From the NCBI GenBank assembly GCA_965243025.1, contig CBDETY010000003.1, forward strand, positions 5,952,001 through 6,016,000: a stretch of DNA of 64,000 nt, given 5' to 3'. Below are positions 20,502-31,556 of this stretch, in pieces. The stretch is from Candidatus Latescibacterota bacterium (GTDB taxonomy: Bacteria > Latescibacterota > UBA2968 > UBA8231). A model generated the notes under the pieces. That model was not told where the DNA came from and ran no database searches. It saw nothing but the letters and a program-made list of their open reading frames with translations. Position numbers and translations under genes: made by a program. Every line of letters begins with the position of its first letter. Position 1 is the stretch's first letter.

Positions 20502-21413
20502 CTACTCCGACAGGCTGGCCTTGATGCGGGCCCAGGTGATGCTTTCGACCGCGGTGCCGTCGGTACCACTATCTGCGCCCAGAAGTATCCCGTGTGCCCA
20601 TCGGTCAGATGCCATATTCGAAGAATGATCCCATGTGGCATCCGGGCCCAGCATGAAGTGTAAACAGTCTACTGTTATCGGGTCCGTGTCAGCGTCCGCA
20701 AGTATCATAGCAAACTCTATCATTTTTCCAGTAAACAGTTCCGATGGGAGACTCTGCTCGGGGGAATCCCAGATCAACCTGTCAAACGCGGTTACGTAGA
20801 ACTCGATCACGTAGAAGACGGGCTGACTGTCCAGTACACCCCCGCCGCCATCGGCGTACGGTACCTGGTGCACCCAGGGTGAATCGGTACTCACCCATTC
20901 CAGGAAGACGTTGCTGCCGTATTCATGGTTTTCTGCAATTCCCCAATACTCTTGCGCCTGGCCCATCGTGACATCCCGAATAACCACACGATCTTCCCTT
21001 TCGACTACCGTCCCACCGCTTCGGTCGCCGTCAACCAAAAAATGAACGGTTGCCTCGAAAGGGAACAAAGGAGCCCGACCAAGCCACTCACCTACATAGA
21101 TATCGTCCACGATTTCAGCCGCCACGAACAGGTGATTGCCGGCATCGTGCCAAGCTAGCCAGATGCGAAAGTCGAACGACGACGGGTCGTACTCCGAGGG
21201 AAACCCCGGATGAGTGGCAAAATCCAGCGGCGTCAAGGTCGGTTCGCCGAGTACCTCCGACCAGTCTTCCACCGAACCGTCCCGGAGGTCGATGCGCGCC
21301 CGCATCTCGTCGGTCAACTCCCTGATGGGATAGAGGCGGTCGGACCACTGGGCGTCGAGAGCAATCGTCGGGAGCAGGATGAATAAAGCGTTTCGGAACG
21401 AAAGGAATTGCAT
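20502..21413 (-). CDS. Secreted CBM9-like protein with C-terminal TAVESITWARIKASL motif (paralog 1)
   Basis: Signal peptide; shares YPI.EL..IDL.DG..W, DFRIWLAW, DGD.SGG, YADGGG, EFYVT.FD with four other ORFs in the window. Confidence 0.8.
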   Translation of the reverse strand: MQFLSFRNALFILLPTIALDAQWSDRLYPIRELTDEMRARIDLRDGSVEDWSEVLGEPTLTPLDFATHPGFPSEYDPSSFDFRIWLAWHDAGNHLFVAAEIVDDIYVGEWLGRAPLFPFEATVHFLVDGDRSGGTVVEREDRVVIRDVTMGQAQEYWGIAENHEYGSNVFLEWVSTDSPWVHQVPYADGGGGVLDSQPVFYVIEFYVTAFDRLIWDSPEQSLPSELFTGKMIEFAMILADADTDPITVDCLHFMLGPDATWDHSSNMASDRWAHGILLGADSGTDGTAVESITWARIKASLSE

Positions 21414-21594
21414 TTGAAATCCTTCTTTGATCTGTACCTTGTGTTGAAGCAGCGGGGCAAAAAGGAATGAAAAAGAACCTCGGCCACACTCCAGAAGTAC
21501 TGCATGATCTGAGAATGGCAGAGGTCAAGTTACGACGATGCTGTCGACTTTGACGCTAATCGGGACCTATCGCCGGAGTCAGTAGCATTGGCAA

Positions 21595-21653
21595 TACGAG
21601 CCGCTCCCCGATGATAGCCAGGGGCAAGAGAGCATGAGAAGATGATCCTTCAT
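21595..21653 (-). pseudogene. 5' remnant of a Cys-rich precursor gene (frameshifted, no core)
   Basis: MKDHLLMLS-/PLAIIGERL matches MKDLLYTLSAPLGIIGERL of 23604..23951; same upstream intergenic sequence. Confidence 0.7.
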
Positions 21654-21787
21654 TTTTCATCCCTTTCCATTTTGGATGAGGTAAGTTATGGAAAGCAGGC
21701 AACCCAACCCGGCTGCTCCTACTTCCCTGGAAACTTCGCGCGAACGCTACCCTGCGTCCGACCTGCTTCACCTCCTTTCTCATGTTG

Positions 21788-21904
21788 TCAGCCCCCTCTC
21801 AGCCATATACCCAGGTCGATTCCGGGGGGGCACCAGGTTGCCCGCGAACACCGCGGTCAGCAGGGCCCCGGCAGCGATGAGCGGCGCCAAGGGCAAAGCC
21901 TGTT
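21788..21904 (-). pseudogene. 3' remnant of an A24 peptidase gene
   Basis: QALPLAPLIAAGALLTAVFAGNLVPPR/IDLGIWLRGG* matches the C-terminus of 30143..31216. Confidence 0.75.
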
Positions 21905-21951
21905 TCTTCTTGTTCGCTTGCCGGGGCTTTCAACCAGTTGCGGATTGGCCT

Positions 21952-22476
21952 TCAGCGTCCTTGTTCGCCCGTTCGTTTGAAGTGATCCGTCACATCGAGC
22001 TCGATTTCTGCTTCGGGAAAGCGGGTGTGCGAAGCCACCTGTAGCAGATCCCTTCCGATCAACCGAACCCGCTGTGAGGACGTCGAGGGTTTGAATTCCC
22101 ACTCGAGGGACAGTTCAGGTGCCCCTTGATTGGACCCACCGACTGTATCGGGGACCGTATTGTCTCCCCAGAAGCAATCCACTGGATCACAGGACCCCCA
22201 CATGCGGACGAGGAATTGGCCGGTAGAATCGGGCTTGAGTATTAAGACCCGCGTGACGTGGTCGGCTTCCGTATCTACGTTTTCCCAGGTGCCTATGAGG
22301 TCCGCTAATTGAAGCGATGACTCGGGTAAAGCCTTGGGAACCGGTGCATCATTGACGGGGTTCTCTGATTCCGGCGGACTGGAACAGGAAATCGCCACCA
22401 GGGTTGCAGCAATCCAGATCCGATGCCGCGCCGTATATACCCGAGGGGAAAATGGGGATTGGCTGTGAACGTTCAC
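21952..22476 (-). CDS. Hypothetical lipoprotein
   Basis: 174 aa; hydrophobic stretch followed by AISC lipobox; GTWENVD, WGSCDPVDCFWG. Confidence 0.6.
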   Translation of the reverse strand: MNVHSQSPFSPRVYTARHRIWIAATLVAISCSSPPESENPVNDAPVPKALPESSLQLADLIGTWENVDTEADHVTRVLILKPDSTGQFLVRMWGSCDPVDCFWGDNTVPDTVGGSNQGAPELSLEWEFKPSTSSQRVRLIGRDLLQVASHTRFPEAEIELDVTDHFKRTGEQGR

Positions 22477-22496
22477 TGTGACCGGTTTCGAAAAAA

Positions 22497-29651: not shown

Positions 29652-29697
29652 CAGTTAGAGTTCAGGGTAAAATCCGATTCCCGCAGTCATTCGTCAT

Positions 29698-30033
29698 TTA
29701 ATAATCCCAGCAATGACATTCGTCATTTTGGACATGGCACCAATATCCGCCTGTGCAGCTTTCTGAGGCACAAAACGATGCGCACTGCCAATCTGCGTTA
29801 CAGCTTCCTCCCTGTACACTGCAGGCTTCGGCTCTAGCGGTGTCCGGGGCCCCAAACACCACCGCCGCGGCGATCAGCAACCCCCCGGTCCACGCGACCG
29901 GAAACCCCTGTTTCGAGCTGACTTCGCCGGATTCGCTCCGGACGAACTCCGCGATGAACCCGCTCCCAAGGGCGGGCCCGGCGGCCTCAACGAGGCCTTT
30001 TGCGACCGTCAGGGCCGCATTCAAGATATGCAT
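29698..30033 (-). CDS. Cys-rich precursor 2: conserved leader, hydrophobic helix, 8-Cys core
   Basis: EFVRSESGEVSSKQGFPVAWTGGLLIAAAVVFG-PDTARA then C-6-C-5-C-3-C-4-C-5-C-6-C-1-C-WDY; GAGGA RBS. Confidence 0.82.
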   Translation of the reverse strand: MHILNAALTVAKGLVEAAGPALGSGFIAEFVRSESGEVSSKQGFPVAWTGGLLIAAAVVFGAPDTARAEACSVQGGSCNADWQCASFCASESCTGGYWCHVQNDECHCWDY

Positions 30034-30142
30034 TTTTCATCCTCATCGGATAAAGGTTATACAACGATTCCTCCGCTTCCCAACCCTTGAAACTTCGCGC
30101 AGCCACCTGCGCGTCGATTGCGGCCTCACCTCCTTCCTTCGG

Positions 30143-31216
30143 TTACCCCCCTCTCAGCCATTTGCCGAGGTCAGTCAGGGGCGGGGCCAGGTTGCCCGCG
30201 AACACCGTGGTCAGCAGCGCCCCGGCGACGATGAAGGGGACGAACGGGAACCCCTGTTCCCGCGCGATGGAACTTTCATCCGGCAACTCCTGATTTCCCT
30301 GCCGGCGAAGGGCGTGCGCCTGCTTCTTCGACAGCGGCTGGTCCGCCTCGCAGACCACCGTTCCGTCCGCAGTCTCCAGCTCCAGGCGGTGCCGGGGCAC
30401 GTCTCCTGCCCGCACTTCTTCGGCCGCAACCGTGCGCACCAGGGCGCGGCCGTACTGGAAGCGCACCTGCAGGTACACCACTTCGAGCAACCAGACGACC
30501 CCCAGCATCAGCACACAGGTCTGCCAGGCCCCGGTGGTATGGGACAGGTAGAGCAGGGCGGCGATCCCCGGCAGCAGGATCACGTTCCAGTACTTCTCCT
30601 CGATTCCCCGGTCGAGCAGGCGGTAGCCGACGACGAGGGCGGCCAGCGCTTCCAGGTAGCTGAGCGGGCGCTGCAGCACCAGCCAGGCGAAGGCCAGGGC
30701 GAGGCCCAGCAGTCCGGCCAGGCCCCAGGCCGCCCGCAACCACTGTCTTCCCCCGGGGCGCACCGCCTGCGATTGGCCCTCTTCCTCGGGCTCCCGGCGC
30801 CACAGCGGCACCAGCAGCAGCACGAGCAGGTAGCAGATCAGACTGTTCAGGATCAGGGCGAACGGGGCGGCCTGCATGGCCAACGGTTCGGGTGACGGGC
30901 ACAGGCTCGGGGGCAGGGCAGCGACCGCGGCCCAGAACAGCTTGGCGTCTCCCGGAGCCCAGAACCCGAACAGGGTCAGCCCGACGGCCACCGCCAGGCC
31001 GATCCCCAGCAGGGAGGCGACGCGGCCGAAGGTAGTCACGTCGAGGGCCACCATCGCCGCCTGCCCGATCAGCCCGATCCCGAGCAGGGCCAGGGTGTAA
31101 CGGTTGGGCACCCGCCTCGCCTTCAGGTCGGTGTAGCCGGTGTAGAACCCCACCGCCAGCAGGCTGGCGAGCATGGCAGTCTCCACGAGAAAGACCGGGT
31201 CGGTGAACAGGTTCAT
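30143..31216 (-). CDS. A24 family (prepilin/preflagellin-type) aspartic peptidase, intact, 357 aa
   Basis: Multi-TM; YTDLKARRVPN, GFWAPGDAKL, C-terminal GFPFVPFIVAG. Confidence 0.85.
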   Translation of the reverse strand: MNLFTDPVFLVETAMLASLLAVGFYTGYTDLKARRVPNRYTLALLGIGLIGQAAMVALDVTTFGRVASLLGIGLAVAVGLTLFGFWAPGDAKLFWAAVAALPPSLCPSPEPLAMQAAPFALILNSLICYLLVLLLVPLWRREPEEEGQSQAVRPGGRQWLRAAWGLAGLLGLALAFAWLVLQRPLSYLEALAALVVGYRLLDRGIEEKYWNVILLPGIAALLYLSHTTGAWQTCVLMLGVVWLLEVVYLQVRFQYGRALVRTVAAEEVRAGDVPRHRLELETADGTVVCEADQPLSKKQAHALRRQGNQELPDESSIAREQGFPFVPFIVAGALLTTVFAGNLAPPLTDLGKWLRGG

Positions 31217-31355
31217 TGGCTTCCCTTCCGCCGGAGGGCGATGGCGGCCAGGATCCGTACTGCCGGTCTGGGGGTAGTCACACTTGCTGATTCCGCGGTA
31301 AAGTCTGTCGCGACGGCTGAAACTCACGAATACTATCCCTGACATTTACTTTTAC

Positions 31356-31371
31356 TGCACAATTCGTGCCA
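31356..31371 (-). promoter_or_regulatory. Sigma54 -24/-12 promoter
   Basis: Minus strand TGGCACGAATTGTGCA; matches TGGCACG-N4-TTGC with one mismatch. Confidence 0.8.
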
Positions 31372-31524
31372 GGTCTGGAAAAAACCGGCTTAACTCCGGT
31401 CCAGATAAGGAGTTAAGGCATTTGTTAAAGGATCGAGAGAGGAGGGAGAACTGTCGCAAAAAACAGAAACCTCACCGTGGAAAAATGCGATATCAGTGTG
31501 TTTATGATGGAGTTATGAAAAAAA

Positions 31525-31556
31525 TCGCATTTTGCGACGCGATTCGCATTTTGCGA
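31525..31556. promoter_or_regulatory. Tandem palindromes, putative bEBP enhancer (UAS)
   Basis: TCGCATTTTGCGA at 31525-31537 and 31544-31556. Confidence 0.65.

Follow-up and report, generated by a model that had tools for sequence, protein, structure and literature searches.

In a 64,000 nt stretch of the genome of a Candidatus Latescibacterota bacterium (contig CBDETY010000003.1, positions 5,952,001 to 6,016,000; the window, meaning here the whole stretch analysed), we identified several copies of a gene module that joins a peptidase of the prepilin-processing A24 family to small cysteine-rich proteins and envelope redox genes. The conserved module consists of a long A24 peptidase, one to three Cys-rich precursors, two membrane-anchored TlpA-like thioredoxins and, often, an FMN_bind-like protein. 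With a probability of roughly 0.7, we consider it to be a dedicated maturation module for secreted, disulfide-stabilized mini-proteins. A first-pass annotation made from the sequence alone had described a repeated order of A24 peptidase, leader-bearing precursor with eight Cys residues and secreted protein with a TWxRIKASL motif. The corresponding open reading frames (ORFs) are all in place, repeat and Pfam searches agree with them, and both precursor cores of the window indeed carry eight Cys.

The evidence that these genes belong together comes from their conservation. We examined 18–20 kb around 20 peptidase genes from 19 genomes and scored all ORFs with five protein models; the resulting 25 rows correspond to 24 distinct loci, L041 and L088 being one contig. 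In breadth, the analysis covered one phylum (168 genomes) plus nine loci from a pattern scan. A precursor match was found within ∼9 kb of the peptidase at all 24 loci, six of which had fed the precursor model and 18 of which had not. A thioredoxin was present at 23 and an FMN_bind-like gene at 15 of these loci, so that the coupling of redox genes proposed by the first-pass annotation extends well past the window. Cys-rich ORFs with the same leader stood beside peptidases 37–89 % identical to those of the window in a first set of 1.5 kb flanks, and beside peptidases 29–50 % identical in a scan of genome contigs, including some labelled Gemmatimonadota or Anaerolineales. Three gene orders were observed: FMN_bind-like gene, two thioredoxins, peptidase and precursor (the genus of the window, L088 and L089); peptidase, FMN_bind-like gene, two thioredoxins and precursor (L042, L043 and L090–L092); and FMN_bind-like gene, peptidase and two thioredoxins, with precursors some kb away (L093–L095). 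That a gene set is kept together through such rearrangements usually points to a functional unit. Two of these loci, L042 (labelled Latescibacterota) and L043 (labelled Gemmatimonadota), carry nearly the same module, and the phylum labels of metagenome-assembled genomes (MAGs) are to be read with care.

Counts across the phylum point in the same direction. The long peptidase was detected in 32 of the 168 genomes (E ≤ 1e-20) and a precursor in 36 (E ≤ 1e-6); all 32 peptidase-positive genomes were also precursor-positive, including 15 that gave no sequence to the precursor model, and only four of the 136 peptidase-negative genomes had a precursor. The matches cover 7 of 49 genera and three families, with up to 16 precursors in one genome. 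The conservation of this pair across genomes, which had been put forward as the way to check the system, therefore holds both locus by locus and genome by genome. As a separate observation, genomes G137, G153 and G148 have 11–16 precursor matches, several of them in arrays that extend over tens of kb (e.g. G153:C13:371633-410886).

Within the window, module and neighbour genes form a run on the minus strand from 31345 to 20502 (ORF list of the window), comprising one intact unit, one unit with a frameshifted peptidase and two remnants. A search for direct repeats at the DNA level recovered families matching the ORF picture. Downstream of promoter A lie peptidase 1, precursor 1, a protein of the family ending in TWGRIKASL (hereafter TWG protein), a leader remnant and a second TWG protein; downstream of promoter B lie the FMN_bind-like gene, the two thioredoxins, peptidase 2, precursor 2, a TWG protein, a lipoprotein-like protein, remnants and the fourth TWG protein. 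The features, in order of transcription, are as follows.

31525..31556, minus strand: two palindromes TCGCAAAATGCGA in tandem, upstream of promoter A, as candidate activator sites (pattern count)
31356..31371, minus strand: sigma-54-type promoter A, TGGCACGAATTGTGCA (pattern search)
30143..31216, minus strand: long A24 (GxGD) peptidase of unit 1, intact, 357 aa (PF01478, 37.2 bits)
30034..30142, minus strand: conserved element 3' of the peptidase stop codon, AAGGAGGTGA followed by a 7-bp GC hairpin (unit alignment)
29698..30033, minus strand: precursor 1, 111 aa, with leader, hydrophobic stretch, AxA and 8-Cys core (ORF, AlphaFold2 model)
28617..29636, minus strand: CBM9-like secreted protein of unit 1, 339 aa, ending TWGRIKASLSE, accessory and lineage-specific (family comparison)
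28322..28402, minus strand: precursor-leader remnant of the partial copy (74 % identity over leader residues 20–46)
27317..28288, minus strand: second CBM9-like TWGRIKASLSE protein, partial copy (93 % identical to the first, 28617-29636)
27117..27148, minus strand: two tandem palindromes upstream of promoter B (pattern count)
26950..26965, minus strand: sigma-54-type promoter B, TGGCATGAATTGTGCA (pattern search; duplicated region with repeat families D8, D11, D12 and D15)
26270..26872, minus strand: membrane-anchored FMN_bind-like protein with RHDIxCxxCxD and DG-[ILV]-[ST]-GAT (weak PF04205 match, alignment)
25735..26277, minus strand: TlpA/ResA-like thioredoxin 1, CGAC (AhpC-TSA, 42.5 bits)
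25139..25720, minus strand: TlpA/ResA-like thioredoxin 2, CPYS in the window copy (AhpC-TSA, 35.9 bits; motif from the translation)
24103..25142, minus strand: long A24 peptidase copy 2, unit 2, with a frameshift in a C run near 24280 (alignment, read contigs)
23604..23969, minus strand: precursor 2, 121 aa as listed, 8-Cys core (ORF; AtDEF-like E-value of 0.0082, below the cut-off)
22497..23501, minus strand: third CBM9-like protein, unit 2, ending TWGRIKASLELE (family comparison)
21952..22476, minus strand: lipoprotein-like protein, 174 aa, no family (homologue in the second locus of the genome)
21813..21914, minus strand: remnant of a peptidase C-terminus, decayed unit (sequence similarity)
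21556..21783, minus strand: precursor cut down to the start of its leader, decayed unit (ORF)
20502..21413, minus strand: fourth CBM9-like protein, decayed unit, ending TWARIKASLSE (family comparison)
16591..20392, minus strand: response regulator, histidine kinase and sigma-54 activator (receiver-PAS-AAA+-HTH_8) that may regulate promoters A and B (domain scan)

Both window peptidases, which are 84 % identical to each other, exceeded the Pfam cut-off for PF01478 of 26.5 bits (37.2 and 41.3 bits). In an alignment of 25 relatives, D30, G89 and D90 were invariant in all 25, corresponding to both catalytic aspartates, the second in a GxGD-like motif; an LPPxLxP stretch was conserved as well. The AlphaFold2 (AF2) model (mean predicted local distance difference test score, pLDDT, of 77.9) has ∼10 helices and a small beta domain, in the order five-helix A24 part, four extra helices, beta domain and a last helix equivalent to the usual final A24 helix. 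The beta domain spans residues 259–321, with five strands and one helix (pLDDT 55–72). Loops rich in Arg and Lys were noted at residues 140–155 and around the small beta domain; by the positive-inside rule, these adjoining loops would place the domain in the cytoplasm, on the same side as the leader motif of the precursors. The archaeal peptidase FlaK (3s0x) was the top fold match to the model in the PDB, weakly (E-value 0.76, probability 0.57–0.63), and the nearest clusters in a protein atlas, taken as a lead only, were archaeal and Bacillota A24 enzymes of 345–371 aa carrying Arc_PepC. A predicted complex of the peptidase with leader residues 20–72 reached a median score of 0.21 against a mark of 0.32, which argues neither for nor against binding. 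Relatives of the peptidase are publicly named 'prepilin peptidase' or 'CpaA'; in NCBIfam, neither the peptidase nor the precursors nor the TWG proteins had a family. Peptidase copy 2 is split between ORF 24276-25142 and ORF 24103-24828, which contains the C-terminal part out of frame. An assembly error as the cause of this frameshift (24276-24290, C run) was considered and rejected, as contigs from three sequencing runs (X1, X3 and X5) match the window, although the run with the best match may come from the source sample itself. Three contigs of run X6, from another study, contain one additional C behind 24282, which keeps the frame open; this may be strain variation or slippage. Runs labelled 'sponge metagenome' contained 0.12–0.30 of the sampled words, and no habitat was drawn from them. 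The search for sequencing runs brought up none of RNA.

The precursors form a large family defined by its leader. A profile built from 34 diverse members matched 202 cluster representatives at E ≤ 0.001, and 58 at 1e-10, among 1.84 billion proteins, almost always of 70–135 aa. Reading 148 library representatives and the copies at the loci revealed a common plan. An N-terminal stretch, short or long, leads into the motif F-x-x-[SDN]-[ES]-[STD]-G, which is followed by ∼10 polar residues that include Lys or Arg and end on a small residue. Then comes a hydrophobic stretch with a nearly invariant Trp at its start, a Pro or Gly, and small residues at −3 and −1, with the first Cys within 0–4 residues. 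Numbered on the alignment, F30, G36 and W48 are nearly invariant. The small residues at −3 and −1 correspond to the pattern of a signal peptidase I site (AxA), here predicted by eye. The leader before the hydrophobic stretch is up to ∼45 residues long in the genus of the window, whilst many relatives have only 10–15 residues before the motif; in two leaders (L085:7562-7897 and L086:8147-8476) we noticed that the S-E-S-G motif is doubled in tandem. The cores that follow contain 4 to 10 Cys in several unrelated frameworks. Amongst the closest relatives, 26 metagenome proteins, the first ∼70 residues are near-identical whereas the last 40–45 vary freely except for the Cys. For 22 close relatives, mean pairwise identity was 0.69 in the leader against 0.37 in the core, and 0.22 in the core once shared Cys were left out, bearing out the conserved leader and variable core of the first-pass annotation.

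Three relatives (L093:6947-7720, L094:10807-11799 and P0078) carry the same leader, one to three tandem Cys-rich domains and, at their end, a type A sorting domain of the type IX secretion system (T9SS; TIGR04183, 26.2–29.7 bits against a cut-off of 23). Neither window precursor extends beyond its last Cys pair or has a TIGR04183 domain. Cargo of the T9SS is brought across the inner membrane by Sec and stays soluble once in the periplasm; in these fusions at least, the leader appears to act as a cleaved export signal.

Both window cores have the framework C...C...CxxxC...C...C...CxC, whose CxxxC and CxC elements recur in many, though not all, relatives. In the AF2 model of precursor 1 the leader has a pLDDT of ∼50, whilst residues 71–111 form a beta-alpha-beta-beta domain at 88–91. 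When this core was compared with the PDB using Foldseek, the top 22 rows were plant defensins, gamma-thionins or scorpion toxins, with target-normalized template modelling (TM) scores of ∼0.44–0.72, probabilities of up to 0.97 and E-values all ≥ 0.27; in the best rows the whole target was covered at TM 0.63–0.72. We predict a plant-type (cis, cysteine-stabilized alpha-beta) defensin fold for both window cores, which also have the 8-Cys framework of that type, whilst other members of the leader family have unrelated Cys frameworks. Comparing the precursor profile with PDB sequences returned nothing significant, the best related entries being sugarcane defensin 5 (E-value 6.9) and Defensin-1 (E-value 9.9), and no Pfam family matched the window precursors or TWG proteins above cut-offs.

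With regard to the redox genes, thioredoxins 1 and 2 (42.5 and 35.9 bits) were above the AhpC-TSA cut-off of 26. The first carries CGAC or CSAC across loci, the second CPYC in most, including L042 and a paralogue locus in the window's own genome. Members of the FMN_bind-like family have an N-terminal membrane helix, and RHDIxCxxCxD and D-G-x-[ST]-G-A-T are invariant in 14 of 14 relatives, all of which match PF04205 weakly (best E-value 0.0005). The flavinylation motif has been given as [S/T]GA[S/T] in the part of PMC8238504 available to us, which the D-G-x-[ST]-G-A-T of this family fits, suggesting a flavinylation-type motif. A profile of the family had no match among PDB sequences. The genome encodes one match to the flavin transferase family ApbE (254.7 bits, C3:5850146-5850970), and searches at E 0.001 for DsbB and VKOR returned no match, DsbA and DsbD not having been searched for. 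Given a neighbouring substrate with three to five disulfides to form, the thioredoxins and flavoprotein would more plausibly serve oxidation and shuffling than reduction.

This genome (6.8 Mb in three contigs, 96 % complete) has four PF01478 matches, all above the cut-off: the two window copies, one at C3:2.826 Mb and a paralogue at C3:156 kb (33 % identity). The first-pass annotation had seen no pilus ATPase or platform gene in the window, and this now extends to the whole genome: there were no matches to the T2SSE ATPase at E 1e-5 or to the T2SSF platform at E 0.01, with positive controls in 13 of 14 genomes for each, although at 96 % completeness such null results do not prove absence, and the secretin family was not searched for. 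A prepilin peptidase in four copies without partner machinery calls for another substrate than pilins. A scan of 32 of the 46 genes predicted in the window likewise showed no radical SAM, YcaO or LanM-type family, in line with the earlier remark that the window lacks enzymes that modify RiPPs (peptides which the ribosome makes and which are altered after translation). The second locus, at 2.82 Mb, reads thioredoxin, thioredoxin, peptidase, precursor, TWG genes, lipoprotein-like gene, precursor and TWG gene; this is paralogy and not independent evidence. Beside the third site (C3:156388-161208), the paralogue peptidase is followed by two thioredoxin-like genes (CSAC and CPYC), with a weak precursor match (E-value 2.9e-8) on the opposite strand 3.5 kb away.

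If this is a maturation module, its path might run as follows. The precursor would be inserted into the inner membrane by means of its hydrophobic, signal-like stretch, its N-terminus staying in the cytoplasm. The A24 peptidase would then remove the cytoplasmic leader, whose motif may be held by the beta domain; candidate cut sites are after the invariant Gly of F-x-x-S-E-S-G, or at the small residue preceding the hydrophobic stretch. On the outer face, the thioredoxin pair would form or shuffle three to five disulfides, with the flavoprotein connecting to an electron sink. Finally, signal peptidase I would cut the AxA site directly before the first Cys, releasing a free peptide of 40–50 residues. 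The most likely place of action for such peptides would be extracellular, be it in antagonism or in interaction with a host. The name 'export cassette', used by the first-pass annotation, overstates the case: the ordinary signal-like hydrophobic region, the AxA site and the T9SS domains of some relatives suggest that export probably follows general routes, and that the module supplies processing and oxidative folding. A bolder version, which we hold to be possible but rather doubtful, is that this A24 lineage has left filament biogenesis to become the leader peptidase of a large family of hypervariable secreted mini-proteins, its beta domain reading a Flp-derived leader motif in the manner of a RiPP recognition element, and that the CxxC-bearing FMN_bind-like protein and the thioredoxins make up a flavin-based disulfide generator of the cell envelope replacing DsbB or VKOR.

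A number of points weigh against a maturation module of this kind. Cleavage, flavinylation, the disulfides and every step of the path are inferred. The A24 cut site is uncertain, since the invariant Gly lies 10–12 residues before the hydrophobic stretch and known A24 substrates are cut at the edge of that stretch; moreover, signal peptidase I alone could free the peptide via AxA, leaving no obvious need for an A24 cut. Four of the 36 precursor-positive genomes lack the long A24 peptidase even at E 0.001, two of them being 97–98 % complete. Of these, G027 has a truncated precursor adjoining fragments of thioredoxin and FMN_bind-like genes, and hence looks like a decayed module, G029 has a lone intact precursor, and G149 has its precursor as a fusion with a T9SS domain. 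Because related genomes do not count as independent samples, the co-occurrence counts are no statistical test; the placement of relatives in Gemmatimonadota and Anaerolineales follows MAG labels. With respect to the redox genes, the FMN_bind-like gene is lacking at 9 of the 24 loci, its window product scores 15.3 bits (E-value 0.032) and two relatives 17.8 and 18.2 bits against the PF04205 cut-off of 22, and thioredoxin 2 of the window reads CPYS instead of CxxC. As to the defensin fold, the Foldseek E-values of the core are 0.27 or worse, in keeping with the small size of a domain of ∼40 residues. Pfam defensin-type families match only 4–6 of 34 precursors, with a strong E-value only for Toxin_2 (1 of 34 at 2e-5; AtDEF-like, 1 of 34 at 0.0082, is below its cut-off, and Gamma-thionin matched 2 of 34 at 0.1). 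Lastly, the window cores are acidic or neutral (0 Lys + Arg against 5 Asp + Glu in one, 2 against 2 in the other), unlike typical cationic defensins, and a classical cationic, membrane-active role is therefore not obvious.

Several other explanations share part of this evidence. The hydrophobic stretch might remain in the membrane as an anchor once the A24 enzyme has cut, so that the Cys-rich domain is displayed at the outer face of the inner membrane, e.g. for redox, metal-binding or adhesive functions. From the Phe or Leu before the Trp to the helix-breaking Pro or Gly there are ∼18–20 hydrophobic residues, long for a cleaved signal peptide, and type IV pilins are likewise anchored before assembly. 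We nevertheless regard anchoring as unlikely, given that practically every precursor read has small residues at −1 and −3 immediately ahead of its first Cys and that the T9SS-fused relatives need periplasmic solubility for export. Slightly less likely still, in our judgement, is that the A24 enzyme acts after signal peptidase I, as a signal-peptide peptidase that cuts the remaining signal peptide within the membrane, so as to clear it or to set its conserved N-terminal fragment free in the cytoplasm as a signal, and is dispensable for the peptide itself. GxGD chemistry is common to A24 enzymes and eukaryotic signal peptide peptidase, the conserved part of the precursor is its leader, which can reach ∼45 residues before the hydrophobic stretch, the AxA site makes an A24 cut dispensable for release, and sigma-54 activators lie beside the module. 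Many leaders, however, have only 10–15 residues before the motif, short for a signalling fragment, and no target for one is apparent.

Another possibility is that the precursors are Flp-type pilins of an unusual sort, with a head rich in Cys, which an ordinary prepilin peptidase processes and an unrecognized machine assembles into a filament. In having F-x-x-[SDN]-E-[STD]-G ahead of a hydrophobic stretch, the leaders are similar to those of Flp prepilins; the public names of the peptidase relatives also agree with this view. Yet neither T2SSE nor T2SSF was found in the 96 % complete genome, the AxA before the core is conserved, some relatives end in T9SS domains, and the neighbours encode redox proteins rather than pilus components. 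Furthermore, Flp_Fap matched none of the 34 precursors even at E 10 (HMMER filters drop most weak matches). The Flp processing motif is G/XXXXEY; at positions +5 and +6 from either candidate Gly, neither Glu nor Tyr was conserved in the alignment. Pilins are thus a highly improbable identity for these proteins, and the first-pass worry that they might match ordinary pilins is not borne out. Least credible of all is a recent segmental duplication in one genome with no functional meaning: the window units and the second locus at C3:2.82 Mb are indeed paralogues 80–96 % identical, but the same gene set occurs with peptidases only 26–40 % identical and in different orders, and the genome-by-genome co-occurrence in 32 of 32 cases contradicts it as well. 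Dedicated maturation of secreted mini-proteins accordingly stays our preferred reading.

One gene of the unit as first drawn does not belong to it. The four TWG proteins of the cassette region (39–93 % pairwise identity) were called CBM9-like on a lead from a protein atlas; a true CBM9_1 match falls on another window gene, 7828-10338. With one TWG protein as query, we obtained 132 matches in its own genome, where 86 ORFs of at least 100 aa have the end [STA]-W-[GAS]-x-[IVLM]-K-[ASG]. The motif ends 3–5 residues from the C-terminus in 78 of these 86 tagged ORFs, and one ORF only was found with the motif elsewhere. Tagged ORFs are mostly CBM9-like proteins of ∼318 aa, some reaching 1056 aa, and the ending looks like a C-terminal tag. 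The window contains copies of this family at 20502-21413, 22497-23501, 27317-28288, 28617-29636 and 46799-47842. Across the survey a TWG protein adjoins the module at only 9 of the 24 loci; such neighbours occur in genera g1, g11 and g18 and in L045 and L084. In five module-bearing genomes tested, the family was not found in two (G089 and G115) and, in three genomes of g14, was present at least 95 kb from the module. Because they are absent or remote in other module-bearing genomes, TWG proteins are lineage-specific neighbours outside the conserved unit, contrary to the first-pass annotation, although their tight adjacency in some genera may have a local meaning. A role for the TWG protein as substrate or partner of the peptidase was considered and dropped, as its signal peptide is ordinary and a membrane helix at its C-terminus is lacking, in addition to the family being absent or remote elsewhere.

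The run is also marked by repeated regulatory elements. The sigma-54-type pattern TGGCAYGNNNNKTGCW has exactly two sites in the 64 kb, 26950-26965 and 31356-31371, where ∼0.09 chance matches are expected, and two or more occurred in 0 of 100 shuffles. The promoter that the first-pass annotation had assigned to the most complete unit is thus present before the redox genes, but it is not particular to them, a second one lying upstream of unit 1. The palindrome TCGCAAAATGCGA has four matches in the window against 0.03 expected, two of them ∼150–190 bp upstream of each promoter; promoters A and B are both inside the duplicated promoter region. Directly downstream of the gene array are the response regulator, histidine kinase and sigma-54 activator, and a sigma-54 activator also stands beside the distant module of L042. 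The genes at 16591-20392 are candidates for regulating promoters A and B. The conserved intergenic element comprises the last peptidase codons, a perfect AAGGAGGTGA and the 7-bp GC hairpin; it is found in all units and at the second locus, in the window at 30034-30142, 23970-24105 and 21784-21830. Rfam gave no family in window positions 20000–32000 at E 0.1. We rejected AAGGAGGTGA as the ribosome-binding site of the precursor, since the start codon lies ∼100 nt further on and is served by a GAGGA of its own.

Some features of the surroundings are recorded here for completeness. The lipoprotein-like protein of 173–174 aa (21952-22476 and C3:2821397-2821918) occurs at both loci, flanked by a TWG gene on one side and a precursor, or what remains of one, on the other, and has no Pfam family. 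Genes for PhyH-type dioxygenases lie on both flanks of the run (15697-16566 and 35075-35866), and four large predicted genes at 41841-49575 (699, 635, 197 and 529 aa) had no Pfam match at E 1e-5.

Set beside known systems, the module belongs to a familiar kind, namely leader-dependent peptides that are secreted and have their own leader peptidase and helpers for disulfides. Among the known bacteriocin and RiPP loci of this kind are those in which double-glycine leaders go with C39 peptidase transporters, and the sublancin and pediocin loci include a dedicated thiol-disulfide oxidoreductase. The module resembles them in its conserved leader and variable core, in having a leader peptidase beside the precursor, in its disulfide helpers and in its several precursors. 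It differs in having an A24 intramembrane aspartyl enzyme as peptidase, no ATP-binding cassette exporter and, among its redox genes, one for a flavoprotein; its peptides apparently leave by Sec, with T9SS added in some relatives, and no other modifying enzyme is seen. With the TadV/CpaA-type enzymes of Flp/Tad systems it shares a GxGD peptidase without a methyltransferase domain and a substrate whose short leader ends in an acidic-Ser/Thr-Gly motif before a hydrophobic stretch. Unlike those systems, its genome has no ATPase or platform match, its precursors have neither a Flp_Fap match nor a Glu at +5 but carry an AxA site and a Cys-rich C-terminal domain, its neighbours are redox genes, and its peptidase, to which four helices and the beta domain are added, has about double the length. 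With the archaeal class III signal peptidases FlaK, EppA and PibD and their substrates, those outside filaments included, it shares a long A24 form with an extra soluble domain (FlaK is the weak top fold match) and a small residue after Lys or Arg at the edge of the hydrophobic stretch; the present module, in contrast, is bacterial, has no archaellum or pilus genes, and would serve disulfide-rich peptides of 40–50 residues with redox genes of their own.

The cores and the flavoprotein have their own parallels. Bacterial cis-defensins have been published for three phyla, where they were picked by ordinary signal peptides, according to the portion of PMC11561630 available to us. Those of myxobacteria, actinobacteria and acidobacteria share the C...CxxxC...C...CxC framework and the predicted beta-alpha-beta-beta fold, whereas the leader described here is long, conserved, common to non-defensin frameworks and linked to A24 and redox genes; the words 'peptidase', 'gene cluster' and 'Latescibacter' do not occur in the available text (PMC11561630). 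The membrane-anchored FMN_bind-type domain, the [S/T]GA[S/T] motif, the thioredoxin-like neighbours and the ApbE gene recall ApbE-flavinylated systems. Hybrid thioredoxin/flavinylation clusters have been described with DsbD, DUF3570, DUF4266 or P19 iron uptake, none of them, in the accessible part of that source, linked to a peptide precursor or an A24 enzyme, and our protein adds an invariant CxxC (PMC8238504). In agreement with the first-pass annotation, which did not recognize a described system, we found no paper linking A24 peptidases with Cys-rich peptides or with flavin/thioredoxin genes, in a search that did not extend to the supplements of PMC11561630 (Tables S2–S6) and PMC8238504 (Supplementary file 1). 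The parts are thus members of known families; what would be new is their union, and an A24 enzyme serving secreted mini-proteins in a filament-free bacterium.

A24 peptidases are annotated everywhere as pilus or secretion enzymes. Here they apparently have a different job, such that automatic names are misleading. With the leader model, ∼200 clusters of hypervariable, disulfide-rich small peptides, secreted by uncultured bacteria, also come within reach; they are a source of stable scaffolds, some of them defensin-like. The range of bacterial cis-defensins would be widened by these sequences and, for the first time, tied to a putative maturation route. The flavin/thioredoxin set, in turn, is a testable candidate for envelope disulfide formation in bacteria without DsbB or VKOR.

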